Origin: Candidatus Woesearchaeota archaeon
Lineage (GTDB): Archaea; Nanobdellota; Nanobdellia; Pacearchaeales; GW2011-AR1
DNA: 64,000 nucleotides
Assembly: GCA_964437555.1 (NCBI GenBank)
Contig: CAYTHI010000001.1
Location: forward strand, 35,149 to 99,148
Direction: 5' to 3'
Shown here: positions 5,216 through 45,218 of the stretch, piece by piece
How the letters are laid out: each line of letters opens with the position of its first letter
Numbering within the stretch: position 1 is the first letter of the stretch
The notes under the pieces: model-generated
Seen by the model: only the letters and a program-made list of their open reading frames with translations
What the model was told of the DNA's origin: nothing
The model's database searches: none
Program-made: the position numbers and the translations under genes

Positions 5216-7744
5216 CGCGATTTTCGCCTCACCGCTAACGCCTTCAGGCACCGGCACTTTCACAGAAGCGGCAACTCTATCTCCTTCTTTCAAACGCACG
5301 ACGTGCACGCCCTGCGTGGCTCGTCCCATTACACGCAAATCTTTCATATTAACACGCAAAACCATTCCTTTTGTTGTTGTCACAATAACAGAATCTTTGT
5401 CATTAACTGAAAGAGAGGCAACAACTTTTCCTGTCTTGTCAGAAACACTCAAATTAATAACGCCCTTAGCTCCACGGGCTGTCTTCCTGTATTCTTCCAA
5501 TGATGAGCGCTTACCAAATCCTTTTTCAGTAATTGTTAATATTGTTGTTTTTCCGTCCTTTGGCATGCTTTCCATTGAAACAACTTCGTCATTCTTTCCT
5601 AATTCAGCTCCTTTAACTCCGTAGCTTGCTCGTCCCATAGACCTTACTTCATCTGTATTAAATCGTATTGCCTGTCCTTTAGCAGTGCATAACATTATTT
5701 CCTGTGCATCTTCAACTCTTCTGACATCAATTACAATATCGCTCCCATCAACAGGAAGATTAATTATTCTCACTCCTGTATTTCTTGGATTTGAAACATC
5801 TTTCAAAGGCAGTTTTTTTACAACTCCAAGTTTAGTCGCGAACATCAAATATCCTTCATTGAAATCTCGCAGAGCCATTACATTTGCTATGTTCTCATCT
5901 CTTAAGCTAAGAAGATTAACAAGTGCTTTTCCTTTGCTCTGCCTTTCTGAACTAGGAACATCATTTGCCTTAAGCCAGTACAATCTCCCTCGTGTTGTGA
6001 AAAACAATAAATAATCATGGGTTGAGCACGTGAGAATTTTCTTTACAAAGTCTTCTTCTTTCAAGTCAGCTCCTGTAACTCCAGAGCCCCCTCTTCTTTG
6101 CTCTTTGTAAGCAGAAACATCCATTCTCTTTATGTATCCTGTTTCTGTTAACAACACGACAACATCTTTCTTCTCAATCAAATCTTTTTCAGAAATCTCT
6201 GCAACTCTCTTCAAAACAGTTGTTCTTCTTTCATCCCCATACTGCCTCTTAATCTCCTGCACTTCTTTCTTTATTACAGAAAGTATTTCCTGCTCGCTTG
6301 ATAATATTTTTTTCAATTCGAGAATTGTATCTTTAAGCTCTTTTTCTTCATCTTTTAGCTTATCGCCTTCCAATCTTGTAAGCTGTGATAATCTCATCTC
6401 CAATATTGCTTTCACTTGCCTTGCCGTAAAATTAAACTTTTTAACTAAAGATTCAGAAGCTTCACTGGGACTGGCAGACTTCCTTATTATAGCAACAACA
6501 TTATCTATATCTTTTAATGCGATTAATAATCCGAGAACAATTTCTAATCTTTCTTCAGCTTTCTTAAGCTCAAACTGGCTTCTTTTTCTTACAACCCCTG
6601 CTCTATAACTGACATATTCTGAAACATACTCTTTCAAATTCAAAACTTTCGGCTTTCCCTTGACAAGCGCAAGAATATTAGCATCAAAAGAAGTCTGAAC
6701 ATTAGTTAACTGATACAATTTATTTAAAGTAAATTTGGGGTCAACTTCTTTCTTAAGCTCAATAACAACTCTTACCTGCCCCTTGGCAGACTCGTCTCTT
6801 AAATCAGAAACATCAGGCAGTTTTTTCTCTGTTGCTAATCTGGCTATGTCTTTAACAAGTTCTGCCTTATTAACCATATAAGGAACTTCTGTAATTATAA
6901 TGTAAGGCCTGCCTTTATGCTCTTCTATCTTTGTCCTTGCCCTCATTATTATTTTTCCCTTTCCTGTTCTGTACATGTCCTGTATGCCGCTGCCGCTTGC
7001 AAATCCGCCTGTCGGGAAATCAGGGCCAGTAACAATTTCCATAAGCTGCTCAATTGTGGTTTCCGGCTTGTTAATGTAAGAAATAATTGCTTCTGCTATT
7101 TCTGTTAAATTATGAGGAGGAATATTTGTTGCCATTCCAACTGCAATTCCTGTTGCTCCGTTCAATAATAGATTAGGAAGTTTAGCAGGCAGTGTCTCTG
7201 GCTCTTCAGTTGAATTATCAAAGTTAGGCCTCATCTTTACTGTTTCTTTTTCAATATCTGCCAATAACTCGCCGGCAATCTTGGCCAGCTTTACTTCTGT
7301 ATACCTCATTGCCGCAGCACTATCCGCATCAATTGAACCAAAATTTCCCTGTCCGTGAATCAATGGATACCTCAAAGAAAATTCCTGAGCCATACGAACA
7401 AGAGAATCATAAACAGCAACATCCCCATGAGGATGATATTTTCCTAAAACTTCTCCGACAACTGTTGCTGATTTTCTCGTCGGCTTGCTGCTATCAAGAC
7501 CTATATTATGCATCGCATACAAAATTCTTCTATGAACAGGCTTTAATCCGTCTTCAGCAGCAGGCAATGCTCTCTGGACAATAACAGACATGGCATAATC
7601 AATGTAAGATTTCTCCATCTCTTCAACAATTTCTTTTCCGCTAACGCCCAGCTCGTTTCCTATCTGATTCTTTGTCCTTCTTTCCTTTTCCTGGCTTTCA
7701 ATTTCTTCTTCTATCTTGTCTTCGTCCTGTGTTCTTGGCGTCAT
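5210..7744 (-). CDS. gyrA: DNA gyrase subunit A
   Basis: '[12 protein letters not shown]...[13 protein letters not shown]', '[10 protein letters not shown]' and 'YHPHGD' are GyrA hallmark motifs. Length is 844 aa. Confidence 0.92.
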
Positions 7745-7941
7745 TTTTTCCTTCCTAATTTGCTACTATTTCTGCCTTTACTTTGCTCTTTACTCTGTCC
7801 TTCCCTGCCGAGAATCGGCTTTTCAGGAAAAATACTTCCTAAATACCCGCAATTCCTGCACATCCAGCTTCCTGTTATTCCGCCAGCAACTAGTTCAACG
7901 TCATTGCTCCCGCAATTCGGGCAAAATTTCTTTGTTATCAT
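7741..7941 (-). CDS. small zinc-ribbon protein (CxxC...CxxC), translationally coupled to gyrA
   Basis: 'CPNCGSN...CRNCGY' four-Cys ribbon. Its stop overlaps the gyrA start (ATGA). Confidence 0.5.
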
Positions 7942-8246
7942 TTTAAAACTCCATTAATCCAGCCTAAATATTTATGATATCCTGTAAATCTAATTGCAAT
8001 AACTTCTGGCAGTTCATATTTATGATTATCAAGAATAAATCTCCCAAGTTTTTTATAATTATTAGATGAAGTTTTAATATCTAATCTAAACTCATTACTT
8101 GCTTCCAATTTTCCCTTCCAATTATAAAATCCTTTAATACTACTAATCTGCACACATGCTCCTAATCTTGCATTAACTATTTTTTTAGCTAACTCTTCTG
8201 CATCCTTTTTGCTTGCAACTGTTGTGGAAACTATCAAATATGCCAT
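7938..8246 (-). CDS. cutA: divalent-cation tolerance protein CutA1
   Basis: 'MAYLIVSTTVASKKDAEELAKKIVNARLGACVQI...YELPEVIAI' is typical CutA. The start is placed at an internal Met to avoid overlap with the gyrB end. Confidence 0.65.
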   Translation of the reverse strand: MAYLIVSTTVASKKDAEELAKKIVNARLGACVQISSIKGFYNWKGKLEASNEFRLDIKTSSNNYKKLGRFILDNHKYELPEVIAIRFTGYHKYLGWINGVLK

Positions 8247-8247
8247 C

Positions 8248-10593
8248 TTACAAATCAACCTCTGCCTCATGGGCTCTTTCCGCAATGAACTGCCTGCGGG
8301 GCTCAACATCATCACCCATTAATCTTGAAAATACAGAATCTGCTTTTACAGCATCTTCAATAAGAACTTTGTTTAACAGGCGATTTTTAGGATTCATTGT
8401 TGTTTCCCACAATTGTTCAGCATTCATTTCTCCAAGTCCCTTAAATCTCTGGACATTAAGGCTTCCGCCCAGCTTATGAAGAAGCGTTTTCAATTCGTCA
8501 TCAGAATAAACATAATGGTCTTTTTTCTTTCTTACTTTATACAATGGAGGAACAGCAATGTAAATATTGCCATTTTCAATCAAAGGCCTCATAAATCTGA
8601 AGAAAAATGTCAGCAATAAGGTTCTGATATGCGCTCCGTCAACATCAGCATCGGTCATAATAATAACCTTGCTGTATCTTATCTTATCAATATCAAATTG
8701 CTCCCCTACTCCTGTTCCTATGGCTGTTATAAGATTTGCAATTTCTTCGCTTGAAAATACTTTTGTCAAATTTGCTTTTTCAACATTCAATATTTTTCCT
8801 TTTAATGGAAGAATTGCCTGATAATCCTTGTTACGCGCTTGTTTTGCGCTATTATGAACAAATACCCCAGATGCCAAAGCAAAATTATGAGTATTGGGAA
8901 CTTCTATGTCATAAACAGCTATCTTTTTATTGAGATTGGTTTTACTTATAATTTTATGATTTCTCATAGGAACAATTGCAATTGTTTTTTCATAGAGGGG
9001 CATTAAAGAATCCTCATTAGTCAAGTATTTAGCTTCTTTATAACTTCCACCCCTTAACATGAAATTGTGGTCAGGGGTGCAAACAATTTCTTCGCCATTA
9101 TCCAAAATTATCTTAATTACTTCCGCACTTTTCTTGGTAATCCTCGGATTTTCTATTCTTTCTATGCCTATGCTTCCATCTTCTTTGATAGTGTAACAAA
9201 AGTTCTGCTTGCCCTGTTTACCTTCTTCTATTAATTCCTCAAAACTAAGATTTCTTCCGTCTGCAAGAGCGACTTTAGTATCGCCTGAAAAACATCCTCC
9301 GGCTGAATCGCCTTCAACAAGATATACTTCTGTTTCCTCGGTCTTATTGCTTGAGCAGTCAGCAAGCTTTCCAGGCAACCCCCCGACAGAAAATGCGTTT
9401 TTTCTTCTTACCAATTCTTTTGCTTTCTTAGCAGCATTTCTTGCCTGCTGCGCTTCCAACGCTTTTGCAACAATTCTTTTCGCAACATTAGGATTTTCTT
9501 CAAAAAATTCAGACATAGAAGACATAGAAGTGCTTTCAACAATTCCTTTTATTTCTGAATTTCCTAATTTTGTTTTTGTCTGCCCTTCAAACTGCGGCTC
9601 AGGAACTTTAACTGAAATAATAGCTGTAAGGCCTTCTCGAACATCATCTCCTGTCAAACTGCCATCCTTCTCTGACTTAAGCATCTTATTCTTTCTTGCA
9701 TAGTCATTTATCGCCCTTGTTAATGCTGCCTTAAAGCCGACAACATGAGTTCCGCCTTCAACAGTATTTATTGTGTTTACAAAACTCAAAACATTTTCCT
9801 GATAACCTGAATTATACTGGACAGCGCACTCAACAGTCACTCCGCTGTCAACTTTGTAATAATAAACCGGCTTTGCATGAATAGCATCTTTGGATTCATT
9901 AACCCATTTAACAAATTCTATCAGTCCGCCTTCATAATGGAAAGTTTCCTTCTTTCCAGAAATTTCATCATTAACAATTATTTTCAATCCTTTGTTAAGA
10001 AAGGCTATTTCTCTAAAACGAGTTTCCAAAACAGAATAATCAAATTTTGTTGTTGAGAATATCTCATCATCAGGCGTGAAAGTTACAATTGTTCCTGTTT
10101 CTTTTTTGTCGCACTCTCCTATAACCTTTACATCGTATAAGGGCTTTCCTATCTTGTATTCCTGCTGGTAGATTTTTCCGTCTCTTTTTACAACAACTTT
10201 CATATGTTTGGACAAAGCAGCAACAACACTTATTCCTACACCATGCAATCCGCCTGAAACAGCATAGCTTCCCTTGTCAAACTTGCCTCCAGCGTGCAAT
10301 TTAGTAACAACAATCTCCAAAGCCGGCTTTTTATACACAGGATGCACGTCAACAGGGATTCCTCTCCCGTTATCTTCAACAGTCACACTCCCATCCTTAT
10401 TTAGAGCGACTTTTATTGTGTCGCACTGCCCTGCCAATGCTTCGTCAACAGAGTTATCAACAACTTCCCATACCAAATGATGGAGCCCCTGCTTGCTCGT
10501 GCTGCCTATATACATAGCCGGTCTCTTCCGGACTGCTTCAAGGCCTTCCAAAACCTTGATATTTTCTGCTGAATAGTTTTTTTGATCTGTCAT
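8248..10593 (-). CDS. gyrB: DNA gyrase subunit B, interrupted by a mini-intein
   Basis: GHKL ATPase motifs ('VVDNSVDEA', 'DNGRGIP', 'GLHGVG'). The Toprim motif 'LVEGDSAGG' is separated from '[26 protein letters not shown]' by a 148-aa insertion. Confidence 0.9.
8851..9294 (-). other. mini-intein (no homing-endonuclease domain) inserted in the GyrB Toprim motif (GDSAGG^S)
   Basis: N-terminal block A '[13 protein letters not shown]', block B 'TPDHNF', and a C-terminal '...[15 protein letters not shown]' followed by extein +1 Ser. Removing it restores the canonical GyrB 'EGDSAGGSAKQ' sequence. Confidence 0.8.
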
Positions 10594-11611: not shown

Positions 11612-11998
11612 TTACTTCTTAAGGTATGCAATGTCTTTCTCAGCATCGCCTGCCTCAATCACAGCAACTGCGGATGTAGGAACTGGAATGCCCACTGCAA
11701 TACCTAATTTTTGTTTAGAATCAACTTCCTGACAAGGGATTCCTTTTTCCTTGCATATGACTGGTATGTGCGCAACAATCTCTTTTGGAGAAACATCAGA
11801 AGCATAAGCAACAAACTTTGCAACACCCCTCTCTATCGCTTTGGTAACCTCGTTAGAACCTTTGTCTATCTTCCCAGTTTTGCGAGCTTTTTCAATAATA
11901 CCATAAACATCCATATTAACCTCCGCCGACACTAAAGCGTCATTGGTTAAGCTTTGATGAAAACTATGCTTTATAAACTTTGCCTTGAGATTTTGCAA
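11612..11998 (-). CDS. rpl7ae: 50S ribosomal protein L7Ae
   Basis: 'GVAKFVAYASDVSPKEIVAHIPVICKEKGIPCQEV' L7Ae/L30e fold signature. Confidence 0.88.
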   Translation of the reverse strand: MQNLKAKFIKHSFHQSLTNDALVSAEVNMDVYGIIEKARKTGKIDKGSNEVTKAIERGVAKFVAYASDVSPKEIVAHIPVICKEKGIPCQEVDSKQKLGIAVGIPVPTSAVAVIEAGDAEKDIAYLKK

Positions 11999-12212
11999 AG
12001 TTTATGCCAGAAAATAAAAATTTTCTAAGTATCAAAAAAACTTTAAGTTGTTAGTTTTTGGATGTCCAAGAAGTTGAGGAGACTTCTTGACATAAATCTT
12101 GCTCTGACAAAAATATTAAATTCTAATTGCGTTTAATTATTCAGGCTAAGCGGAGTTTCAGCGACAATTTTAACAAAAGAATATTTATAACATTGAAATA
12201 CTTATTTTTGGC

Positions 12213-12509
12213 ATGAACATACTATTTGAGGTCGTAGACAAAACAGGCCGAAATCTACGAATGACCGATTACAACTGGCAACATATTGTCAGAAGACATC
12301 CCGAGATAGCTTCTCAAAAAGAAAAGATAATAGAAACTCTCGAAAAACCAGATAAAATTACATATTCTCCAGATGACGAAGAAACTAAGTATTATTACAA
12401 ATACTACAAAAATCTGCCTTCTCCATGGATATTTGTGAGGGTAATAGCAAAATACTTAAACGGCGATGGATTTATAATATCATCACATTTTGTGAGAGCA
12501 ATACAATGA
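12213..12509 (+). CDS. putative toxin of a DUF4258-like family (TA pair with next gene)
   Basis: 98-aa protein. Its stop overlaps the start of the DUF2283-like partner (ATGA). Confidence 0.45.
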   Translation: MNILFEVVDKTGRNLRMTDYNWQHIVRRHPEIASQKEKIIETLEKPDKITYSPDDEETKYYYKYYKNLPSPWIFVRVIAKYLNGDGFIISSHFVRAIQ

Positions 12510-12763
12510 AAAATCAAGTAACATTTGATTTATATTATGATGAATTAGGAGATTTCTTAGAGATATCCTTCGGCCTTCCTCCTGAAACCGAATACACAGA
12601 AGACTTGGAAGAAGGCATTTTTGTAACTAAAGATAGAAAAACAAATGAGGTTAAAAGCATAGGAATAATTAGTTTCAAAAAAAGAGCTAAAGAAGCAATT
12701 TTGAAGAGAGTTCTGGAACGGCTCGGGATGTCTATTCCATTAGAAATAAGTATTTCTAAATAA
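12506..12763 (+). CDS. DUF2283-family putative antitoxin
   Basis: 'VTFDLYYDELGDFLEISFG' resembles the DUF2283 'Y-D-x-E-x-D-x-L-Y-I' pattern. The start is taken at an internal Met coupled to the upstream gene. Confidence 0.5.
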   Translation: MKNQVTFDLYYDELGDFLEISFGLPPETEYTEDLEEGIFVTKDRKTNEVKSIGIISFKKRAKEAILKRVLERLGMSIPLEISISK

Positions 12764-13007
12764 TAACTTGAAAGTTAGGCCAAATATCGTCTTTTACGAA
12801 AAAAGCTATTTGGAAAATTGAGATATTTGCCTTTTATTGGATATTAAGTGACTTTAGCACGAGCTGGCTGACGAAAAGCCCTCGTGTCTTGCAATTTGTT
12901 TGAAAATCGCCTTTGAGCGTGATTGACGGACTATCTTTGTATTTGGGAGGACTCGTTTTATGTTCTTACTTGATAAAGGTGACAATAGAAAGATTTGAAT
13001 AACCCTT

Positions 13008-13382
13008 ATGTTTGTAGAAAATATGACAAACGATAGAAACTCAGACAGAAGTGCAGAGGAAAGATTACTTTATAGTATGTTTCCAGAAATGAAGCCTTCT
13101 AAAGAAAGAATCCCTTATACTCCAGAACAATTAGAAAAAGCGAGAAGAAAAATAGGGAAAGTTTTGAGTACCTTGACGTATAGAGAAAGAGAAGTTCTTA
13201 AATTGCGTTATGGTTTAGGTGATGGATATGCATACACTTTAGGAGAAGTAGGAAAGACTTTCAACATAACTAGAGAAAGAATTAGACAAGTAGAGGCTAA
13301 AGCAATAAGAAAATTACAAAGTCCAGAAAGACGAGCAATATTAGAAAGTTTACTCGATGAACCTCCAAGTACTTCTCAATAA
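13008..13382 (+). CDS. standalone bacterial-type sigma-70 region 4 (4.1/4.2 HTH) domain protein
   Basis: '[63 protein letters not shown]' is near-colinear with RpoD region 4.2 ('LTxREAKVLRMRFGI...[28 protein letters not shown]...'). Regions 2 and 3 are absent. Confidence 0.7.
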
Positions 13383-13759
13383 ATATTTATTAATTCTATA
13401 TTAATTCCTTGCGAAGCAAGACAATTTGTTTTTCTTCAGAAAAACCAAGCCCTCCCAATCCATCCCGTCAATTACGTTTAAACATCATTAAACCCAATCA
13501 ACAGGGCTATTTATCCGTCCGTTTAAGCGTAGCGAAAAGGCGTATTTTCAAATTTATCGAAGATAAACCTCTAATTTAGAAATAAAAATAAGAGGCAAAT
13601 TGCAAGTTCATTTAATACTTCTTAACCGCCCTTTTCACATCGAAAAGGAGGGTAAAGCGTAGGGAACCTTGGTGCCCTCGCGCGCGTTCGGCGCTTCGCG
13701 CCTCACAAATAAAAACCCGCAACAAATTTCTTGGGCTATTTAAATAAGACCCAAAAAAA

Positions 13760-14125
13760 TTATTTGACAAATTCAACACCTTCAGTATCTGAAAATTCCT
13801 TGTCTCCCGTCAAAAACTTTATCCCAAGCTTCTTTGACATTATATACCCAATGCAATCTGTAATTGAAACTCCTCTGTTCTTCCATTTTAATCTGAAAAG
13901 CATCGCTTCTTCTATCCATTCCGGCTTGACAGAATTAATATAATTAGAATATTTCCTTAAATTTTCCTTAGCCGATTTATCCTTATCCCTATAGAGACAA
14001 TAGCATAATTCAGCAAAAATAAAATTATTGATTATTATCTCTGAATCCAGATATTTCTCATACTCTTTATTGCCTCCGATAATCTCAATTATCGCATAAG
14101 TATCAAAAAGATATTTAGAGGTCAT
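13760..14125 (-). CDS. vapC: PIN-domain toxin VapC
   Basis: PIN acidic residues are in place ('LFDTYAI', 'FAEL', 'ITDCIGY', 'LTGDKEF'). Overlaps the upstream antitoxin gene by 11 nt. Confidence 0.75.
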   Translation of the reverse strand: MTSKYLFDTYAIIEIIGGNKEYEKYLDSEIIINNFIFAELCYCLYRDKDKSAKENLRKYSNYINSVKPEWIEEAMLFRLKWKNRGVSITDCIGYIMSKKLGIKFLTGDKEFSDTEGVEFVK

Positions 14126-14336
14126 AAAGTTCCTTGTCAGATTCTTTCATTAGTTTTTTTGCAGATTTAGAGAATTTGTGGGAGCCAAAAGTCTCGCGGA
14201 GCACATTTCCTTTCTTAACAAGAATTGCATCTATCTCTTCGCCTTCTTTCATTCCCTTATCTCTCAAAACTTCATGGGGAATAATTATTCCGTAAGAATT
14301 TCCCCATTTCCTTATCTTTGTCGTAAGTTCTGTCAT
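14115..14336 (-). CDS. vapB: AbrB/SpoVT-MazE-type antitoxin (VapB-like)
   Basis: 'KIRKWGNSYGIIIPHEVL' swapped-hairpin AbrB motif. Confidence 0.7.
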   Translation of the reverse strand: MTELTTKIRKWGNSYGIIIPHEVLRDKGMKEGEEIDAILVKKGNVLRETFGSHKFSKSAKKLMKESDKELYDL

Positions 14337-14361
14337 GTATATACCGTATATACGAAGCTAT

Positions 14362-14598
14362 TTAAAACTTTCTCTTATTTGCTTTCAAAAGACCAAGCTT
14401 CCTTAAATAATCCCGCGCTTTCTCATTAAAATCCCCGCCGTCTCCGAACTTCTTTCTGAAAATCTGCCTGCTCGCAATAATCTGGCTGTCAATCAGCATC
14501 TTATGCTGCCTGAAAAATTTATTATTTTCTTTAAGAGAATTAGCATAAAATTCAACATAGTCGCTGTCATTAATCGGTTTTTTTATGCTTTTTTTCAT
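14362..14598 (-). CDS. small hypothetical protein (78 aa), overlaps the 3' end of the NTase gene
   Basis: Basic protein with 29-nt overlap; last gene of a four-gene minus-strand operon. Confidence 0.35.
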   Translation of the reverse strand: MKKSIKKPINDSDYVEFYANSLKENNKFFRQHKMLIDSQIIASRQIFRKKFGDGGDFNEKARDYLRKLGLLKANKRKF

Positions 14599-15190
14599 TT
14601 TTTACCTCACTAAATATAACCTCGCCGGATTGTTTAAATCTTTCCTCGCTCAAAATAGCTGAAAAGAAATTCCTTAAATGCCTCGCATCCTCCATATCTT
14701 TTCTGCCCGCGAGAACAATTTCTTTATATAAAATCTCAAATTCCAGCATAGGTATCTTAAATTCAAAATCGCCCACTCTGATTTTCTGAAAATGCTCAAA
14801 TTCATACTTCTTGGCTCTCTTGCTTTCATTAAATGGCACAAGTTCTATATTAGGAAAAAGCTCCTTATTTCTGGCAAATCTTAAGCTGGTCATCTGCTCT
14901 AAATAAGAATAGGCGTCATTAAAATCTTCTCCCTGATAACACCAAAATCCTGCCTTCTGCAAATCGCCGAATAAATCTCCAAATTTTTCTTTCTGTATTG
15001 AAGGAAATAAGATATCCACATCTTCAGTTGCTCTTGTTCTCCCTGTTGATATGCTGACGTATCCGCTTACAACAAGATAGTCGCTGTGCTTCTTTAAAAC
15101 TTCAAGAAAATCCTTCGCAAATAAATCGAGCTCGTTTAGGTCTCTTTCAATAATAATGACACCGTTAATTATTTTGTACCCTTTTTCCAT
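14570..15190 (-). CDS. nucleotidyltransferase-fold protein (pol-beta/MNT superfamily; possible AbiEii-like toxin)
   Basis: 'VVSGYVSISTGRTRATEDVDILF' matches the hG[GS]x9-13DxD NTase motif. Confidence 0.55.
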   Translation of the reverse strand: MEKGYKIINGVIIIERDLNELDLFAKDFLEVLKKHSDYLVVSGYVSISTGRTRATEDVDILFPSIQKEKFGDLFGDLQKAGFWCYQGEDFNDAYSYLEQMTSLRFARNKELFPNIELVPFNESKRAKKYEFEHFQKIRVGDFEFKIPMLEFEILYKEIVLAGRKDMEDARHLRNFFSAILSEERFKQSGEVIFSEVKNEKKHKKTD

Positions 15191-15271
15191 AAAATAATAT
15201 AATCAGGTAATATAAAAAGTTTTATCTCCATCCCGCATCAACGTCATCCGTTTTTTCCCTAAGAATTATAC

Positions 15272-15853
15272 CTATTTCAAAGCATTATTTACTTTCTTCT
15301 TAAATTTCTCCGGGTATCTTTTCAAATATTCTTTAAGCTTCTTTTTATCAATTTTTTCCCTGAAAGTATCAATAACTTCCCTGTCCAAAGGCTGCCTGAA
15401 ATAAATCATGTCAATAAATGTTTTTTCAACATCAGAATAAGGAAAATAGAAGTCCCCGTCTTTGTAGTATTCAAAACCAAAAATATATTTTTTGTCTATT
15501 CTCCTAATAAACACGTTCCTATCAAAAATCTTCCTTATTCCTTTTCTCAGATTTCTCGTTGTAACAACAATAGGGTTTGTTTCCTGCTCCCATAAATTAT
15601 GAAAGCTCATTGCATTTTGCAAACCCAGATAAGAAGGCTTAAAACAAAAAACAATCAAAGAAGGATCGTCATAAATGCTATAAAAACCCTTAGTTATTTT
15701 TCTAATTTCGCCTTTCTTCAGTAAATTATTAATAAGCAAGTAAATGTAATCTTTATTCTTTTTTTTAATAAATTTCTTTAACGATTGAATATCAACAACA
15801 GGGCTTTTTTTAAAAAATCTCCTGATATCATTAATATACTTTATTTTACCCAT
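15272..15853 (-). CDS. AbiEi-like type IV TA antitoxin / transcriptional regulator
   Basis: N-terminal wHTH 'LLKKGEIRKITKGFYSI' and C-terminal 'SYLGLQNAMSFHNL...NPIVVTT' resemble the AbiEi/COG5340 architecture. Confidence 0.55.
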   Translation of the reverse strand: MGKIKYINDIRRFFKKSPVVDIQSLKKFIKKKNKDYIYLLINNLLKKGEIRKITKGFYSIYDDPSLIVFCFKPSYLGLQNAMSFHNLWEQETNPIVVTTRNLRKGIRKIFDRNVFIRRIDKKYIFGFEYYKDGDFYFPYSDVEKTFIDMIYFRQPLDREVIDTFREKIDKKKLKEYLKRYPEKFKKKVNNALK

Positions 15854-16491
15854 CTTTTTATCCCCATTAAAAGCTCATTTGAGTTAGGAACAGCTCCAAT
15901 AATAATTATGCTTGATAAATTTGCTTCGTCTTTTGGCTTTTCATAATTTCTGATTAATTTATTTAAAGAAGCTTCAACTAATTTTCTGTTTTCCACATAG
16001 TTAAGCAAAAAATAAATATCATATAAATCTCTTATCTTTTTCCTTTTAAGATATGTTTCAACTTTTTCTAATACCAAGTCTTCTGGGCTTAAAGTATACA
16101 CGTTAATAAAAAAGCTTTCAGAAGTTTCATATTTTTTTGAGAAAGGTTTTTTGCTTTGAAAAGTTGCCTCAAATTTTGTTGCAATATTGTTAAAGTCTAA
16201 TTCAGAATAAATTGAATTTTCCTTTATTCTTTTTTTTATTATTTTAAATCCTTTTGCTTCCAGTGACTTAAAAAATTCTTCAATTTTATTCAAATCTCTG
16301 TTTATATAAACGTCAACATCTTCTGAAAACCTGTTTCCATTATAGCACCTCCATATGCCGGTTCCGCCGTGAATTATAGCATTAGGAAAGAACTTATAGA
16401 GTTCTCCGACAATTATATCCTGGGCATAAGCTATTTCTCTCTCTGATTTCTTTTTCAATTTTAAACTTAGAGGGATATTAACCATTTTCAA
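15841..16491 (-). CDS. AbiEii/DUF1814-like nucleotidyltransferase toxin
   Basis: 'IIHGGTGIWRCYNGNRFSEDVDVYI' matches the GGT...R.SeDiD NTase motif. Overlaps the AbiEi start by 13 nt. Confidence 0.6.
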   Translation of the reverse strand: MKMVNIPLSLKLKKKSEREIAYAQDIIVGELYKFFPNAIIHGGTGIWRCYNGNRFSEDVDVYINRDLNKIEEFFKSLEAKGFKIIKKRIKENSIYSELDFNNIATKFEATFQSKKPFSKKYETSESFFINVYTLSPEDLVLEKVETYLKRKKIRDLYDIYFLLNYVENRKLVEASLNKLIRNYEKPKDEANLSSIIIIGAVPNSNELLMGIKRWVK

Positions 16492-16571
16492 TAATCTACC
16501 AAAGTTATATATATCTATAAGTTGGGTAACTTATAAATCTTTCGCCCTAAGAGGATTAAGGACATTAAATC

Positions 16572-25658: not shown

Positions 25659-28600
25659 TTATTCTCCCAGACTCCCTGTAAACGTTACAGTGGAGTTTCT
25701 TGCTCCGGCAGCCTCCTGTAAAGGAACAGTTACATTAATGTCAATTTCAGCAGTATCTGTTGCATTTGTATAATTAAGCCGGGCAATTGCCAGAATAGGG
25801 GAAGCAGTAAGAGTAATATTTGTATAAGTAAACTTTGACAATACCCAGTTAAAAGAGCCATTCTCCAAAGTGTAATTATCAATCTTGAATTGATAGTTAG
25901 TGCTCGGATTTGCCTGGCTTCTCCACAAATCAGTTGCTCCTATTGTAACATTCACAAAAGAATTCCCGTCATTCTGGATTAAGAAAGGAAGAGGGGAATT
26001 GTCAGAAGTATCATTGGTTCCAAACTGCGATATCTGCCCAAAATTAATGCTGGAATTAGGCAGGCTCATCTGAATCAATGAAGAAATATTAACTCTGAAG
26101 AAATCTGTCCATGCAGAATAATCCTGCTCGTCATAAGCTCTTATAGACCAGTTATATTGGTAATTATTATCATACAAATACAATAAGTCTCCTGATAGTT
26201 TATGGCTTGTCAAGCCCAATGGAAAAGATATGTGCCTATTATCCTCTCCATATCCGCTGCATCCCCCGCCTAAAATGTTTCTGCATGTTAAATTCAATTC
26301 ATAAAATAATGAATCTCCGTCATCATCGCTGCCGGCAGTCCATACAAAGGTCGGCGTCCTGTCGGTTGTTGAGCTTCCGTCTGCCGGGCTTGACAATGTC
26401 GGAGTTCCTGGAGGTGTATTAATTATAGTAAGATTTGATGAATTTACCCAGTTGCTATACTCCAGGCCATCATATAATCTCATTGAGCAAGTCCAATTAT
26501 GATTTTTAGTAGTATTGCCTGAAAGAAGAGTGGCATTGAAAAAAGAATTATTAGCATAGCTATTATTAAAGTCAACAACAAGATGTGACAAAGAATTATT
26601 AATCCACATGACAGTTACATTAATCCTGTCTCCTTCAGGATCAATTAAAGTGTCAAAGCAATTCAGATTCTCATTTGTCCTGTTTGTTCCAAGAGTTGAA
26701 TTTATCTCCGGAGTGGGGGCTGCTGGGGCATTATTAGAATCCTGGATGCTATAATTGCTAAAGCCGCTTATATTGAATATAACTGTTCCTGCATTTAATG
26801 ATGTGAAATTATAGCAATCATTGCAGATAGCATTGTCCCGATACACTTTAGGATACCTGAAATTGCCCGGCATATTATAGAAAGTGATATTTGCAGTTTT
26901 GTTCAAATGACTGAATATTGTAGAATTTGCAAAAACAAAATTATTCCGTAATTCTGTATTTAGGCTTAGGTTTGTCAAATTAAGGGCAGAAGTTCCTGAA
27001 ATGAATTTTATTTCTCCTCCGGAAGTTGTTCCATTTATTAAAGTAATAGTGATATTATTCCCATAGCTTGAATTCAAGTCGGCAAACTGACCTGAATAAT
27101 TTATTATTAATCTTCCGTGTTTAAAAGTAGGAAAAGCGCTAAGATTAACAGCAATATTAGTAAGATTAATTAATCTTGTATCTTCTATATATGCTAAACC
27201 TCCCTCGCTCGTTGCAGAACCATCCCCTGCACCCATCGCAGCAGATATTTGCTTAGTTACATTTGTATTATAAAGATAAAAAGCTCCTCCTGGCCCTCCT
27301 GATCCTGCTGAAGCAATGCATGTCGCATCGCATATCTCTCCGTTATTCAAAAGCCCCTCTACTTCTGAATCTCTTATTGTAATATTTTTGCCTCCGTTTC
27401 CATTATTGCCTGTATATGTAACACCTATTGAATTGGTAAAGTCAGGAATAAATGTATTTTTTACTGTGAGATTTTCAGCAGGGTCCCGCAATTCAATCCC
27501 ATGAACAGTTCCTATTACGGGCCCTGTATGCTCAATAGTAAATCCCTCTCCTTCTAATGCAATATTTGAGGCATTTACAACCAGGCAGCTTGCTGTTGTA
27601 GATAATGTATTGTTAAGGAAATAGGTCTTTCCTGTTTCATGCAAAGTTGTACAGGCAGAAACAAGAGACACATTAAGACCGAAAGTAACATTAACAGTAA
27701 AATTATTATTGCCCAAAGTGTCATTGGCATAAACTCTGAATACATAAGTTCCTGTTAAAAGAGAATTATTTGAATGCGTAAAAGCAGTTCCAAACTTTCC
27801 TTCATTGCCATTCATTGAAATATTATCTACTCCGTTGTTCATAGAGTATGAAACGCTTCCGTTTTCATCCAAGCTGACATTGAAAGTGAAAGGCAAATCG
27901 CTGAAGGTATAGTTCGCACCCTTAGGGAAGTATACTGTAATATTGGGGGGAGCTGCATCCGCCGGGCTGTAAGTAAGAGTGAAGTTTGAAGTATTGAATG
28001 CCTGATTATGAGGAATTGCATTATCCATAGCAAGAAAATTCCAATAATATGCTCCACTGCCATTAAGCCCGATATTATGCGTAATGTTTCCTACTATGCT
28101 GCTGTTGCCTAATCCTGTAAAGTTCTGTGCTACTAAGTCATTAGTTGAATTGTAAACAAATAATGTTGCATTGCTTACATTAACATCATCGGTAAATAAA
28201 GCTCCGAATGCAGCAATGCCTGTTGTTGTTATAGTATTATTGCTCGGATTTATTAGCATTACTTGAGGAGAAGTCTTATCTGCTGCAGAAGTATCAATTG
28301 TTATATTTGCGAAATAAACATCTGTTGCCTGGTCAGTATAAACAAGCTCCAATTCACTGCTTCCAAGTTGATTGTTAGACGGATAATTGGAACATCTGAC
28401 AGAAGGGAATCTTAATGCTCCTGTATTATCAGAGATCTGCTCTTGAGCAGTGAAAAACCCTGTTGAGGTATATTTTATGTAATCAATAGCTGTATTATTT
28501 TCAAAGACAATATGAGCGTTGTTGTTCGCATCAAGGCATCCCTCGCTATCATTGAAAGTTCCTGCATACGTCGCATTGGAATAAACTATTCCATCACTGC

Positions 28601-31600
28601 TGTTAATCACAACTAAATCCTCGCTTGCCGCATCTATCGCTGTAATCAAAATTGTTGTTCCTCTTATGCTTAAATGCATATTTGAAACAGCTAATCCATA
28701 AGCTATTGTGGTCTGATTTGCTGTAAACGAACCAGAAGAATTAATTACAAGCAAGCTACTTGTGGCAGCATCATCTAAGGCAATATAAACATTTCCATTG
28801 CTGCTCATATCTAAAGAACAGCTTTCAGCAATTCCAGGTCCGCCTGCCGATGCTCGTGTAGTCCATGCCAGAGTAGCACCAAGATTAGTAAACGAAAAAT
28901 CCATGTCAAAATCATCATTATCCATGCTGCAGGCAAGAAACCTGCCGCTTGTTGTAGTGCCGTCAAAAGCAACATCCGGGCGATAATTGTCGTTAGTTCC
29001 TCCGGAAACATCAATGATAGCTCCTGAATTAGCAACATTGCAGTCAGCAGTCACATTGTAAATATAACTTATATCATTCTGACCTCCCGTATCATCAGTA
29101 AACATATAGATAATAGCAGAGCCATTAGTGGCAATAGCCATATCGCTATGAGTTCCAGTTAAAGAATCATAAGTATTCCAATTAACACCTTCATCTGAAG
29201 AATCTGAACAGGAGGCATCACTGCTTGCATCCTGCCACAATGCAATAAGTAAATCGGAATTTAACCTGACTATGTTTTTTCCTGCATTAAATCCGCCAGT
29301 AGTAGTTCCTGTTGCTGTTGTTGATGCGTCCGCATTAATCAGATAGTTAGTTGAAGGGTCAATAATATGGTCAAACTCCACACTGCCTCCTAAAATCCTT
29401 AAGTCAAAACTATCCTGCTCTCCTTCCAATCCTGTAAGAAATACTTTATTATATTCATTATCATTAATGCTTTCAAATTCTGCAATAGTCTTATTTTCAT
29501 TTATTTCATAGACTTCAATCCTCGGACTTCCGTTCACAGCTCTTGGATAAATGCTTATGTCCCTGTCGCTTGTCAAATTCCTCTCAAATTTAACTCTCAC
29601 ATAATGCTCTGCAGGAATAGTTTCACTCCAATTTCCGTCCAGTTTAGAAACTTCAGGATAAATGTCAGAGATAAATGTCCTGTTTGAATCAAGATGCTCT
29701 GCAGAAACAATTTCTATAATTAAATCAAACGTCTGATTGCTCAACTCCGGAATAATCCATTCAGCGTAATCATATATTCCATCTTCATCTAAATCAGAAA
29801 CATTTACAGGAACAACATACGCTTGTTTTTCTTCCCAGTATATTTTTAAATCATCTTTATCAATAAGATTATATGATTCATCTAAATTCGTGAAGGACAA
29901 AACATTCTCATAATGAATTTCATCAGGCCCTATAATCAAAACTTTCTTGCCTATTCGTCCATCAGTTAAATTTTCCTCTATCGCATAAGGAGCAGGAGTA
30001 TAATAACTCACTTTGGCTCCTTTCTCAAACTCGCTTAGCTCAATTAATATTTCTTTTCCTTCTTTTGCTTCTGCTTCTTCAGAAACTGCAAATCCGGTCA
30101 ATCTTAAAATATTTCTAAACCATTTTAAAATTCTGTTTTCCCTGTTCAAACTAAGGTCTGCTGTAACCGCTCCAGTGATTATGCTTCCTGTAATATCAGC
30201 ATTAATGGATTCTGGCTCATTATTAGCGGGCTCTGACACCTCAACATTCTCTTCAACATCGGCAACTTCATCTGTTCCTTCATTATCAAATTCCTTCTCT
30301 ATCTTGTCAATAGAAATATTTTCAGCGATTTCAGGGATAAAAATGCTGAAACTGGCAGGTCCATCAACATTATCAACTTTCTTAACCCATTTAACAGGCT
30401 CGTTAAGCTTTATTTCATCATGAACAAGCTCAACATTTATGGATAAATTAGGCTCAATTGTTTTATTAGGAGAAATTATGCTTTCATTAGAAGTTTTATT
30501 AATGCCAATTTCAGGAACAATTTCCTCATTTTTTTCATCAGATTTATTCAGATTTCCTGAAACTGATATGCCTTGAAATACTTCAACAATTGTTTGTCCT
30601 TCATAAGAAAGCTTAGCAGATAAAACGCCTTCATCAGCCCTAAAATTAAAATCTTCCAAATCAATAATTAAAGTAAGCTTATTATTTCCTAAATATTCTT
30701 TGCCGAATCCTTTTTCCTCTAAATAATAATCAGTTGAAACAATGACTTCATTTCTATTTATATCAACTTTGACATTTTCATCTCCAATTGCCTCTCCATT
30801 CGCAGTTACGCTTCCTGAAATTAATCTTGCACTCTGTCCTTCACTTAGCTCATGCACAAAATCTTGCCCATTAACCGCAGTTCCTGTAATTCCAGATGAA
30901 AATTCAGATATCGCTGCTCCTGTAATTCCCGGAGCAGGGCTTCCACCACCAGATTCACTTCCTCCTCCTGAACTTTCAGAATTACTATCAGAAGTTTCCT
31001 GCTTATTTTCTTCTGAATTTTCTTTAGATTCTGCAGGGGTTTCTTTCTTATCAGCATTCAAATCATCCTGCATCTGGGGCTCATCAATTTTAGAAGAGCC
31101 GCTTCCTGAAGAGCCAGAACCAAATTCTTTTACTATCTCCAATTCAAAACTCACAGAAGGATAAATTTCTCTTATGCCACTTATACCATACCCTTCGCCG
31201 CTTCCTGATAAATCCAAACCTTCCGCATAAAAATCTCCATTAACAGCCTGTTCTGTGATTAAATCTTTCAAAGCAATTTCTCTTTCAATACTATTAAGAC
31301 CAATAAGTACAACAGAATCAACAGGAATAAGTTCCCCCGCTTTCAAATTTAAAATCAAATTGCCTTCTATCTGCTCTCCAAGAACATATCGTGTCTTAAT
31401 ATCAAGCGTTGCATTCCCTGTTAAATTCGCTGAGATGAAAAAGAAAAGTAAGAGAACTCCTAAAACAAAAAAGAAAGCTGCAGGAAAAAGATATTTCTTT
31501 AAATTATTTCTGGATTTTGCATGCCCTAAGTATCTTGTAATTATCTTTCCATCAACTCTTTCTGTTTCATAAAGATATGGGCCAAATCTCTTCCCATTTT

Positions 31601-31625
31601 TATAAGTATATTTTTTATGTACCAC
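25659..31625 (-). CDS. giant (1988-aa) cell-surface protein with N-terminal signal anchor, Gly/Ser linkers, tandem beta-sandwich and beta-helix-like domains, and dense N-glycosylation sequons
   Basis: Basic cytoplasmic N-terminus then TM 'LFPAAFFFVLGVLLLFFFI'. 'GSGSSGSGSS...SGGGSESGGGS' linkers. '...TPTFVWTAGSDDDGDSLFYEL' Ig-like motif. A run of NxT/NxS sequons (e.g. 'NLTNLSLNTELRNNFVFANSTIFSHLNKTANITFYN'). Confidence 0.6.
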   Translation of the reverse strand: MVHKKYTYKNGKRFGPYLYETERVDGKIITRYLGHAKSRNNLKKYLFPAAFFFVLGVLLLFFFISANLTGNATLDIKTRYVLGEQIEGNLILNLKAGELIPVDSVVLIGLNSIEREIALKDLITEQAVNGDFYAEGLDLSGSGEGYGISGIREIYPSVSFELEIVKEFGSGSSGSGSSKIDEPQMQDDLNADKKETPAESKENSEENKQETSDSNSESSGGGSESGGGSPAPGITGAAISEFSSGITGTAVNGQDFVHELSEGQSARLISGSVTANGEAIGDENVKVDINRNEVIVSTDYYLEEKGFGKEYLGNNKLTLIIDLEDFNFRADEGVLSAKLSYEGQTIVEVFQGISVSGNLNKSDEKNEEIVPEIGINKTSNESIISPNKTIEPNLSINVELVHDEIKLNEPVKWVKKVDNVDGPASFSIFIPEIAENISIDKIEKEFDNEGTDEVADVEENVEVSEPANNEPESINADITGSIITGAVTADLSLNRENRILKWFRNILRLTGFAVSEEAEAKEGKEILIELSEFEKGAKVSYYTPAPYAIEENLTDGRIGKKVLIIGPDEIHYENVLSFTNLDESYNLIDKDDLKIYWEEKQAYVVPVNVSDLDEDGIYDYAEWIIPELSNQTFDLIIEIVSAEHLDSNRTFISDIYPEVSKLDGNWSETIPAEHYVRVKFERNLTSDRDISIYPRAVNGSPRIEVYEINENKTIAEFESINDNEYNKVFLTGLEGEQDSFDLRILGGSVEFDHIIDPSTNYLINADASTTATGTTTGGFNAGKNIVRLNSDLLIALWQDASSDASCSDSSDEGVNWNTYDSLTGTHSDMAIATNGSAIIYMFTDDTGGQNDISYIYNVTADCNVANSGAIIDVSGGTNDNYRPDVAFDGTTTSGRFLACSMDNDDFDMDFSFTNLGATLAWTTRASAGGPGIAESCSLDMSSNGNVYIALDDAATSSLLVINSSGSFTANQTTIAYGLAVSNMHLSIRGTTILITAIDAASEDLVVINSSDGIVYSNATYAGTFNDSEGCLDANNNAHIVFENNTAIDYIKYTSTGFFTAQEQISDNTGALRFPSVRCSNYPSNNQLGSSELELVYTDQATDVYFANITIDTSAADKTSPQVMLINPSNNTITTTGIAAFGALFTDDVNVSNATLFVYNSTNDLVAQNFTGLGNSSIVGNITHNIGLNGSGAYYWNFLAMDNAIPHNQAFNTSNFTLTYSPADAAPPNITVYFPKGANYTFSDLPFTFNVSLDENGSVSYSMNNGVDNISMNGNEGKFGTAFTHSNNSLLTGTYVFRVYANDTLGNNNFTVNVTFGLNVSLVSACTTLHETGKTYFLNNTLSTTASCLVVNASNIALEGEGFTIEHTGPVIGTVHGIELRDPAENLTVKNTFIPDFTNSIGVTYTGNNGNGGKNITIRDSEVEGLLNNGEICDATCIASAGSGGPGGAFYLYNTNVTKQISAAMGAGDGSATSEGGLAYIEDTRLINLTNIAVNLSAFPTFKHGRLIINYSGQFADLNSSYGNNITITLINGTTSGGEIKFISGTSALNLTNLSLNTELRNNFVFANSTIFSHLNKTANITFYNMPGNFRYPKVYRDNAICNDCYNFTSLNAGTVIFNISGFSNYSIQDSNNAPAAPTPEINSTLGTNRTNENLNCFDTLIDPEGDRINVTVMWINNSLSHLVVDFNNSYANNSFFNATLLSGNTTKNHNWTCSMRLYDGLEYSNWVNSSNLTIINTPPGTPTLSSPADGSSTTDRTPTFVWTAGSDDDGDSLFYELNLTCRNILGGGCSGYGEDNRHISFPLGLTSHKLSGDLLYLYDNNYQYNWSIRAYDEQDYSAWTDFFRVNISSLIQMSLPNSSINFGQISQFGTNDTSDNSPLPFLIQNDGNSFVNVTIGATDLWRSQANPSTNYQFKIDNYTLENGSFNWVLSKFTYTNITLTASPILAIARLNYTNATDTAEIDINVTVPLQEAAGARNSTVTFTGSLGE

Positions 31626-36255: not shown

Positions 36256-36573
36256 TCAATGTAGCCAATTAATCGCGTGAACTTCTTCACGTCGGGAATC
36301 TCGCCCGCACAAAGCAAATTAATTGCTCACTGGAACTTCTCGCAAGTCGCTCCTGAATTTTATGGCTTAAAATAAATTTCAACAATGCCCTGATTAACTG
36401 GCGTGTAGTCCATCCGGTTTTCTTCTTGTCTTCAGTTGCTCATGCTGAAATCCAGAGAAAGAAAACTTTCTGGGCGAAAAACAGAAGAAAGCTTGCTTTA
36501 AATTTTTTGCGGCGCGCAGTGCGCACATCATCACAAGAAAAAAATCAAACAAAAGCGAGCAAAACAGATTTAC

Positions 36574-45063: not shown

Positions 45064-45218
45064 GAGCCCATAGCTCAGCCCGGTTAGAGCACTGCTCTTA
45101 TAAGAGTGCGTCTCGCCAGAGACGTATCATTCGGCCTCTTAGGAGGTTGATGTTCAAGGAACCTAGGTTCCTTAACTAGGAAAGGCAGGGGTCCCAGGTT
45201 CAAATCCTGGTGGGCTCA
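45064..45218 (+). tRNA. tRNA-Ile (anticodon UAU) with ~80-nt intron at canonical 37/38 position
   Basis: Manual cloverleaf: acceptor GAGCCCA/TGGGCTC, D-arm GCTC...GAGC, anticodon stem CTGCT/GGCAG (one G-U pair), loop CTTATA^[intron 45103..45182]A, T-arm CCAGG-TTCAAAT-CCTGG, discriminator A. Confidence 0.6.

Follow-up and report, generated by a model that had tools for sequence, protein, structure and literature searches.

The stretch of DNA analysed here, referred to as the window, comprises 64,000 nucleotides of contig CAYTHI010000001.1 from a Candidatus Woesearchaeota archaeon. At positions 13008-13382 it carries a gene for a protein of 124 aa that is a true region 4 of a primary sigma factor (RpoD type), preceded by a short N-terminal segment that would be a diverged copy of the flap-tip helix (FTH) of the bacterial RNA polymerase (RNAP) beta subunit. 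We refer to this flap-tip-helix/sigma-4 protein as FTH-sigma4. Its identity, its membership of a family of small bacterial proteins and its horizontal acquisition were, taken jointly, supported with high confidence. What the analysis demonstrated is that the protein consists of two parts, that it belongs to a family, that the host is archaeal, that the gene lies in an insertion and that the -35 recognition helix is intact. As the explanation of the whole we favour, with moderate confidence, a horizontally acquired member of the FTH-sigma4 family that acts as a self-capped DNA binder free of the polymerase; that this self-capping, DNA-binding mechanism operates in the archaeon is proposed tentatively.

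The archaeal gene encodes a primary-sigma region 4

The gene and its parts are as follows.

13008..13382, + strand: FTH-sigma4 gene (124 aa), an open reading frame (ORF) with an ATG start
13053..13088, + strand: putative flap-tip-helix copy, aa 16-27, diverged from E. coli beta P897-E908 PEEKLLRAIFGE
13089..13109, + strand: linker that joins the FTH-like helix to the sigma70-colinear part, with low predicted local distance difference test scores (pLDDT) and aa 25-38 devoid of secondary structure
13110..13361, + strand: sigma70-colinear part, aa 35-118 (end of the 3.2/4 linker, region 4.1, region 4.2 and C-terminal tail)
13269..13289, + strand: -35 recognition helix, aa 88-94 TRERIRQ, identical to E. 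coli sigma70 T583-Q589

Met6 (13023) is an alternative start, chosen in the Logan gene call (P0002), and the N-terminal motif is retained from either start. The Pfam model Sigma70_r4 (PF04545) matched aa 52-104 (13161-13319) with 61.8 bits against a gathering score of 24.1, and it was the sole Pfam match of the protein at E<=0.01. NCBIfam models, led by those of the RpoD/SigA type and by the RpoD-like MzaA, aligned through their C-terminal ends only, with scores far under their full-length cutoffs. When all PDB sequences were searched with phmmer, residues 35-118 of the query aligned with residues 530-613 of E. coli sigma70, ending on the last residue of sigma70, as expected from a sequence-only reading of this DNA that had described the protein as near-colinear with RpoD region 4. 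All 58 matches at E<=1e-10 were sigma factors, 57 of them primary (RpoD, SigA or HrdB) and one SigB, and identity to the PDB sigma factors reached up to 62%. Identity to region 4 of primary sigma factors lay at about 45-65%, the closest sequence being a Planctomycetota RpoD (65%). The phmmer alignment maps residue n of the query to n+495 of sigma70, and the codons were read off the sequence; it is on this mapping that TRERIRQ coincides with sigma70 T583-Q589, which we take to be the helix that reads the -35 hexamer. Two AlphaFold2 (AF2) runs, with mean pLDDT of 77.8 and 75.4, returned the expected sigma-4 helices, and the top PDB matches of the models in Foldseek were region 4 of primary sigma factors, with a root mean square deviation of 0.7-1.6 A over about 70 residues.

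Two other identities were discarded. A helix-turn-helix (HTH) protein of LuxR/GerE type, which the sequence-only reading had proposed as a check on its own assignment, found no GerE match in Pfam at E<=0.01, and all PDB sequence matches were sigma factors. MzaA was rejected as well, with 101.7 bits against a cutoff of 800, an alignment restricted to profile positions 616-717 of 726 and no other Mza match among the proteins encoded around the gene.

The remainder of a sigma factor was absent from the window. In tblastn searches, full-length RpoD matched only 13143-13355, indicating that no remnants of regions 1-3 exist in the 64 kb, in line with the lack of these regions noted earlier for the protein, and no ORF bearing region 2 was found in the same 64 kb that could serve as partner in a split, two-subunit sigma factor. 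Of what characterises a functional sigma-70 factor, the protein has region 4 and lacks region 2 with its core binding, -10 recognition and melting functions. The earlier statement that the protein has no core binding holds as regards regions 1-3, but it understated the case, since the protein would itself imitate the surface of the core on which region 4 docks.

The N-terminal motif resembles the RNAP beta flap-tip helix

The lead to the flap tip came from the Foldseek list, which was topped by engineered 'sigmaA r4 - RNAP beta flap tip' chimeras. Bacterial homologs of the protein share an N-terminal motif upstream of region 4, with the consensus PEEKLLxAIFG, which RpoD does not have. Judged by sequence, this motif has been copied from the beta flap-tip helix, onto which region 4 naturally docks. 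A hidden Markov model (HMM) of 26 positions, built solely from nine N-terminal segments, produced 51 matches in the PDB at E<=10, of which 49 (E 2e-6 to 3.5e-3) were bacterial beta subunits, matched precisely at the flap tip, or engineered sigma4-FTH chimeras. The sites fell on residues 893-911 of the E. coli subunit, 806-823 in M. tuberculosis, 765-782 in Thermus, 851-869 in Bacillus, and on cyanobacterial enzymes, while the remaining matches (E>=0.48) were noise. No archaeal or eukaryotic polymerase subunit was present among the PDB matches to this profile, which fits those enzymes being devoid of a flap-tip element. Similarly, the 39-residue N-terminus of the family member P0076 matched only two PDB sequences, an E. 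coli beta flap fragment (LTPEEKLLRAIFGE), with 14 of 16 residues identical, and an RpoS-flap-tip-helix chimera. Because the profile is almost confined to beta flap tips, the family is a natural fusion of a flap-tip helix and sigma-4 in one chain, separated by a spacer of 21-32 residues. A reading of the N-terminus as a degenerate region 3.2 was rejected, given that the motif is unlike the RpoD 'ESEDSYFGDFIED' segment and that its profile matches beta flap tips.

The equivalents of beta L901, L902, I905 and F906, presumably the hydrophobic patch that contacts region 4, were among the best conserved positions of the motif in a table of 15 members. It is the motif with these positions that the family shares with the flap; the helix only would have been copied, not the flap domain. 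The archaeal protein retains all four hydrophobic positions as L20, L21, M24 and F25, and its spacing from the FTH to 'LTYRE' is 28 aa, within the family range of 21-32. On a family HMM made from bacterial members only it scored 132.8 bits, compared with 121.6 for region 4 alone, the N-terminus thus being worth about 11 bits; shuffled N-termini gave 122.6+-1.3 (maximum 130.4), and 0 out of 500 attained the native score. The alignment to this HMM set aa 16-27 on the family motif. In addition, a Gly-to-Pro change in the motif is common to the archaeal protein and to the bacterial member in locus L031. Owing to the anchored HMM score, the four retained positions and this shared change, we count the archaeal protein as a probable, diverged member of the FTH-sigma4 family.

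FTH-sigma4 proteins form a family in bacteria

The motif is shared by about 15 small bacterial proteins, and members of the family are about 105-160 aa long. The best full-length homolog of the archaeal protein, P0027 (115 aa), showed 49% identity over 91% of the query and was colinear throughout, and full-length colinearity was also seen with P0024 and P0076. The description of the archaeal gene as a sigma fragment should therefore be abandoned: by these alignments, the 124-aa protein is a full-length member of a family of small standalone bacterial proteins, not a piece broken off a sigma factor.

P0027 was identical on 13 contigs, and the six places shown represent six samples; the gene always lay between FtsA-PemK and FtsZ. 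Its neighbours (YbeY, Pth, HisRS and TsaD) are bacterial and, judged by gene content, like those of the Candidate Phyla Radiation (CPR). Another complete small homolog adjoins SpoIID and glycosyltransferases in a CPR metagenome-assembled genome (MAG) that is labelled Parcubacteria or Saccharibacteria in different records. Further complete small homologs were found behind MurJ (one) and in high-GC bacteria (two). In the CPR-like bacterium that encodes P0027 (loci L001-L006, about 7406-8348), the FTH-sigma4 gene follows a gene for a PemK/MazF-type toxin; this toxin gene begins 10 bp past ftsA, and no antitoxin could be recognised upstream of it.

When 1.84 billion representatives were searched exhaustively by HMM, 75,310 region-4 proteins were retrieved at E<=1e-3 and, among the best 150 of these 75,310, about ten cluster representatives had alignments reaching through the motif. 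One member, P0031 (209 aa, encoded on a 1137-bp ENA contig), combines the FTH motif with Sigma70_r4 (63.8 bits) and a C-terminal domain of the bacterial RNAP alpha subunit (RNA_pol_A_CTD, 66.1 bits). Three promoter-recognition modules of RNAP are thus united in one chain without the polymerase itself, which points towards a DNA-targeting role. Close relatives of the archaeal protein were found in none of the scans of GTDB representatives, JGI metagenomes and IMG/VR, where single-protein queries returned only bacterial RpoD tails and a few family members. A profile search of a word-indexed database was overwhelmed by C-terminal fragments of Planctomycetota RpoD.

Among the other proteins retrieved, P0428 (938 aa) and P0304 (1692 aa) contain 11 and 14 tandem, diverged HTH repeats of the sigma-region-4 type, respectively, which are not simple assembly duplications, unlike the repeats of P0303, P0318 and P0419, which look like duplications.

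The FTH-sigma4 fusion family is not described in Pfam, NCBIfam, PHROGs or PADLOC. In the literature searched, the coverage of which was partial, no description was found of a natural FTH-sigma4 fusion, of standalone region 4 proteins or of their occurrence in an archaeon. What is new is the architecture and the polymerase-free use that it implies, while the domains themselves are familiar. The finding at the level of the family stands even if the archaeal copy is inert cargo.

Comparison with known sigma-4 proteins

Compared with region 4 of the group 1 primary sigma factors (RpoD/SigA), FTH-sigma4 has the same fold, about 45-65% identity, the C-terminal tail and an identical TRERIRQ. It differs in being without regions 1.1-3, hence without region-2 core binding, DNA melting and reading of the -10 element, and in being a separate archaeal-encoded protein of 124 aa with a putative flap-tip-helix copy added at the N-terminus. 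The engineered chimeras (PDB 3t72, 6ido, 7kuf/7kug, 8cwt/8cwr and 8d5v) likewise combine a sigma region 4 and the beta flap-tip helix, linked flexibly within a single chain; they were the top structural matches and were also matched by the N-terminal motif profile. In these constructs the helix is C-terminal of sigma-4 and the linker is artificial, whereas in the natural family the helix is N-terminal and followed by a spacer of 21-32 residues. In contrast to the chimeras, the natural proteins are evolved, conserved genes.

In Bacillus subtilis, SigO-RsoA places region 4 on a polypeptide apart from region 2, and it requires both the region-2 partner and a bacterial core polymerase. In our case the window has no region-2-like ORF and the host is archaeal.

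Phages also encode RpoD-type region 4 detached from the rest of the sigma factor, either as standalone forms of 59-104 aa (P0026 and P0062) or as XRE-HTH + sigma-4 fusions of 190-240 aa (loci L047, L050, L052, L053-L055 and L058; proteins P0039 and P0045). These differ from the family in being without the FTH motif, which was found in 0 out of 15 viral loci, and in their contexts, which are phage structural or regulatory modules. The gene for P0062 lies directly upstream of an intein-bearing gene of 535 aa, with a Mu-type portal two genes further downstream.

That archaea do not use sigma factors, as the sequence-only reading had argued, is true, but sigma-70-family genes in DPANN are already on record (PMC8204110). 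In this study, Castelle et al. (2021) excluded mis-binning for the family fam00359, found no anti-sigma partner and described its prevalence in Woesearchaeota; the architecture was not given (PMC8204110). A sigma-like gene in a DPANN genome is, as such, not new. Both fam00359 and the present gene are bacterial sigma-70-type genes in DPANN, the present copy, found in a Pacearchaeota-like genome, being a singleton.

The gene lies in a hypervariable island of an archaeal genome

The surrounding genes were confirmed as archaeal. S28e, L24e and L7Ae lie 1-2.3 kb upstream of the FTH-sigma4 gene and Kae1 lies 3.2 kb downstream. Since Kae1 shares 76-83% identity with proteins of Candidatus Pacearchaeota and Nanoarchaeota MAGs, the host is, by sequence similarity, a DPANN archaeon that is Pacearchaeota/Nanoarchaeota-like. 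Elsewhere in the window, and in keeping with an archaeal host, a tRNA gene of 155 nt (45064-45218, +) was recognised by Rfam and not by ARAGORN, and presumably contains a long archaeal-type intron.

The gene behaves as part of this genome. GC content is flat across the region (0.32-0.35), and the break that would betray a chimeric assembly was sought and not seen. Relative to the window genes, the codon adaptation index (CAI) of the FTH-sigma4 gene is 0.686, compared with 0.706+-0.026 for host genes, and 13 of its 15 Arg codons are AGA, the codon preferred by the host. Its GC content at third codon positions (GC3) is 0.184, against a host mean of 0.324. An independent Logan assembly (run SRR12113430, contig L041) was 100% identical over 12721-13711, reaching into the upstream DUF2283 gene.

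In tblastx comparisons with three related genomes (L042, L043 and L044), homology ended at 11938 and restarted at 16575. The backbone common to the three relatives consists of Kae1, L7Ae, S28e, L24e, GyrB, GyrA, DUF2238 and a UvrD-like helicase. Between Kae1 and L7Ae, L042 has 186 bp, L044 has about 700 bp with two small ORFs and L043 has about 3.6 kb of other genes, demonstrating that this junction is a variable turnover hotspot in this archaeal group. The FTH-sigma4 gene is horizontally acquired cargo within a hypervariable island of 4.6 kb, which the related genomes lack; horizontal transfer, proposed at the outset, is thereby upheld. The sequence-only reading had advised looking for the same gene in related archaeal genomes; it was absent from the locus in L042, L043 and L044. 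Uniform GC, host-like codon use, the independent assembly and synteny on both sides rule out a chimeric contig.

The island contains the following features.

11999..16571, no strand: variable island of about 4.6 kb with the FTH-sigma4 gene and toxin-antitoxin (TA) and abortive-infection (Abi) modules, delimited by tblastx break points
12213..12763, + strand: candidate TA pair upstream, with a PBECR/DUF4258-like toxin (12213-12509) and a DUF2283-like antitoxin (12506-12763) whose ORFs overlap
12764..13007, no strand: upstream ORF-free spacer, with a hairpin at 12857-12887 and fold z-scores of -1.5 (+) and -0.35 (-)
13383..13759, no strand: downstream ORF-free spacer, with a terminator-like hairpin at 13408-13420 that has a T-run behind it, as well as a multi-hairpin rich in GC at 13621-13706; z -2.1 to -2.4
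13760..14336, - strand: convergent TA pair downstream by Pfam, with PIN (13760-14125, 40.2 bits) and a MazE/AbrB-type antitoxin (14115-14336, 27.7 bits)
15272..16491, - strand: type IV TA/abortive-infection pair, with AbiEi (15272-15853) and AbiEii (15841-16491)

The earlier description of a TA/Abi island was thus correct. AbiEii was matched with 69.8 bits in Pfam and 67.3 bits in PADLOC, and AbiEi with 70.1 bits in PADLOC, whereas the Pfam matches of the PBECR/DUF4258-like and DUF2283-like proteins were weak and both under the gathering cutoff. Two further ORFs beside the TA/Abi modules have no assigned function. None of the island genes has homologs in the sigma4-bearing loci, indicating that there was no co-transfer with TA genes. 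Three exact TTGACA hexamers (13764, 13834 and 13926, +) fall within 170 bp in the 3' part of the convergent PIN gene, a short way downstream of the FTH-sigma4 gene, which may be chance.

The ORF-free flanks with GC-rich hairpins, to which attention had been drawn, are present but unremarkable, folding only modestly better than shuffled sequences (z -1.5 to -2.4). A structured RNA in the flanks was rejected: with z of only about -2, the two spacers gave no credible Rfam match, only a meaningless miRNA at E 0.28. The spacer sequences are not repeated elsewhere. Long terminal inverted repeats or a miniature inverted-repeat transposable element around the gene were rejected too, the score of a stringent alignment (27 versus 19.4+-2.6, maximum 30) not being significant. 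A permissive alignment of 12807-12959 with 13584-13442 scored 20 versus 13.5+-2.2, a value reached in 2 out of 300 shuffles, which is marginal and was not relied on. The independent contig L041 ends at 12721 and 13711, on either side of the FTH-sigma4 gene. Together with the marginal inverted repeat, these breaks could hint at strain heterogeneity or a small cassette; neither is significant alone.

Proposed mechanism and alternative explanations

In the mechanism that we propose, the FTH copy would fold back onto the sigma-4 of its own chain and fill the hydrophobic groove there, or swap with that of a second copy in a dimer. Such self-capping would stabilise an otherwise labile sigma-4 domain, and it would remove both the need for and the ability to dock on bacterial RNAP. 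The product would be an autonomous HTH protein binding TTGACA-like DNA, with its recognition helix left free. Carrying its own docking partner, the protein could work in the absence of sigma factors or of a bacterial-type flap, for example in an archaeon. The archaeon has neither a sigma factor nor a flap tip and, therefore, only a polymerase-free mode makes sense there; the role would be that of a sequence-specific DNA binder, most simply a repressor or occluder, rather than an initiation factor. The engineered sigma4-beta-tip chimeras were built 'to mimic the interaction between sigmaA and the beta subunit', and in them the contact of the beta-tip with sigma-4 is made inside the molecule or, in one of the crystal forms, in trans to an adjacent one (PMC10245118). 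By their titles, PDB entries 3t72 and 7kuf show such chimeras on DNA together with an activator.

A bolder version, which we regard as unlikely, would make FTH-sigma4 an unrecognised class of polymerase-free readers of promoter elements, of which the archaeal copy would have been recruited across domains as a working DNA-binding regulator. Its own flap-tip-helix copy would turn sigma region 4 into a binder of the -35 box that is stable and portable. Some lineages would then have added an alpha-subunit C-terminal domain, as in P0031, or would employ the module, in cis or in trans, to block or re-wire sigma70 promoters.

Several observations weigh against a self-capped family member at work in the archaeon. 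The archaeal N-terminus alone gave a non-significant E of 0.7-2.7 against the motif profile, ranking 2-3 among 980 window ORFs. Its motif is diverged, with 6 out of 12 residues identical to E. coli and Gly907 replaced by Pro. Both AF2 runs place a helix at residues 16-24, but at a pLDDT of only 67-72. No conserved partner or neighbourhood hints at the function of the family in bacteria. TTGACA is only mildly over-represented in the window (56 versus 36.8+-7.3), a weak hint of targets. Finally, no island gene, FTH-sigma4 included, has a counterpart at the locus in the three relatives; the archaeal copy is a singleton, which weakens the case for selection on an archaeal function.

These last points bear on the leading rival, neutral or decaying cargo, in which the gene was dropped into a TA/defence hotspot, is of no use to the archaeon and is intact only through recency. 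Being a singleton, absent from the three syntenic relatives and from all collection scans, would fit this explanation, as would the fast turnover of a hotspot whose content differs in each relative. By score, the FTH motif of the archaeal protein is also the second most diverged of the 15 members (28 against 21-47), its low GC3 would fit an AT-rich mobile donor, and the archaeon offers neither a sigma factor nor a bacterial flap as a working partner. Decay is contradicted by an intact ORF with a recognition helix identical to that of sigma70, in which the four hydrophobic FTH positions and the C-terminal tail are retained although the nearest full-length homolog shares only about 50% identity. 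The CAI is inside the host range and a terminator-like hairpin stands behind the gene. We judge neutral cargo to be rather unlikely, although it is the main rival to the self-capped DNA binder.

A regulator of the island would use the sigma-4 HTH to control one of the adjacent TA/Abi modules, for example by acting as third component of the PBECR-like/DUF2283 pair upstream, or would join in defence. The gene does lie 244 bp downstream of the DUF2283 gene on the same strand, in an island that otherwise is mostly TA/Abi; in bacteria, P0027 is encoded 200 bp downstream of a PemK toxin gene without obvious antitoxin, with a DUF4258/DUF2283 pair 2.4 kb off, and the best PADLOC/NCBIfam name for the archaeal protein is MzaA, a defence-associated sigma. 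This proposal is nevertheless improbable. Both flanking TA pairs are complete and have DNA-binding antitoxins of their own, which speaks against a type II antitoxin or TA-module regulator; there is no co-inheritance, no island protein having a homolog in any sigma4-bearing locus; and other family members lie among housekeeping or cell-envelope genes with no TA genes nearby. The resemblance to MzaA is that of a generic sigma C-terminus, and no other Mza component accompanies it.

Still less probable is a modulator in trans (anti-sigma, sigma appropriation or decoy) aimed at the transcription of a bacterial partner. Here the FTH copy would bind to sigma-4 in a bacterial primary sigma factor, or the protein's sigma-4 would attach to the bacterial flap or titrate activators or phage proteins that target sigma-4. 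Such a role for the archaeal protein, raised in the sequence-only reading as a decoy or anti-sigma factor against a bacterial host, gained no support: there is neither a signal peptide nor an adjacent secretion or delivery gene, nothing in the analysis ties the archaeon to a bacterial host, and host sigmas have the same recognition helix, so that a swap would leave promoter specificity unchanged. According to Castelle et al., DPANN with known hosts are episymbionts of other archaea (PMC8204110). The idea derives its appeal from the fact that both halves copy natural interaction partners, that crystals of engineered chimeras show the beta-tip on the sigma-4 of another molecule (PMC10245118), and that phage proteins targeting sigma-4 exist, such as 4g6d among the fold matches; for bacterial family members the mode is plausible.

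An artefact, be it a chimeric contig, bacterial contamination or a misread archaeal HTH of LuxR/GerE/Tfx type, is effectively refuted: the closest region-4 sequences are bacterial (the Planctomycetota RpoD) and archaeal HTH proteins can trigger sigma-r4 signatures (PMC5413776), but both island flanks show synteny with the genomes of related archaea, codon use resembles that of the host whereas all homolog-bearing loci with computed GC have 40-69% GC, the independent assembly agrees across the gene, and the Pfam and PDB matches are to sigma factors, in the PDB nearly all primary.

Other features of the window

Outside the island, an RT-16 RNA (Rfam RF03019) was detected at 36256-36460 (-) with 78.3 bits against a gathering score of 50. 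It adjoins an ORF annotated as 'putative phage metallopeptidase' (35649-36074, -), and the neighbouring ORFs that were tested included no recognisable reverse transcriptase. The GyrB gene (8248-10593, -) encodes 781 aa, compared with 630-631 aa in two relatives; the additional block of some 150 aa, located roughly at 8878-9290 and flanked on one side by '...VFVHNS', looks like a mini-intein that the relatives are without. An ORF of 1988 aa (25659-31625, -) has no Pfam match at E<=0.001.

Significance

The docking of sigma region 4 on the beta flap-tip helix is among the best-studied contacts in bacterial transcription. It sets the spacing between the -35 and -10 elements, and anti-sigmas, phage appropriators and many activators act on it. 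In structural biology the two partners are fused by hand in order to obtain a well-behaved sigma-4. The existence of conserved natural FTH-sigma4 genes suggests that a free, self-capped sigma-4 has some use in bacteria, possibly promoter occlusion, titration of sigma-4-binding factors or targeting, and laboratories that study transcription gain a simple protein for their tests. The archaeal copy provides a concrete, well-delimited bacterial-type gene inside a DPANN defence/TA hotspot, and an architecture for a sigma-70-type gene in one DPANN genome. Its host is without sigma factors and without a bacterial-type flap, which agrees with the idea of a module that needs no bacterial polymerase. 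If the archaeal copy were indeed a working regulator from a class of polymerase-free readers of promoter elements, it would show by a natural example that a sigma domain is able to work in the absence of bacterial RNAP.

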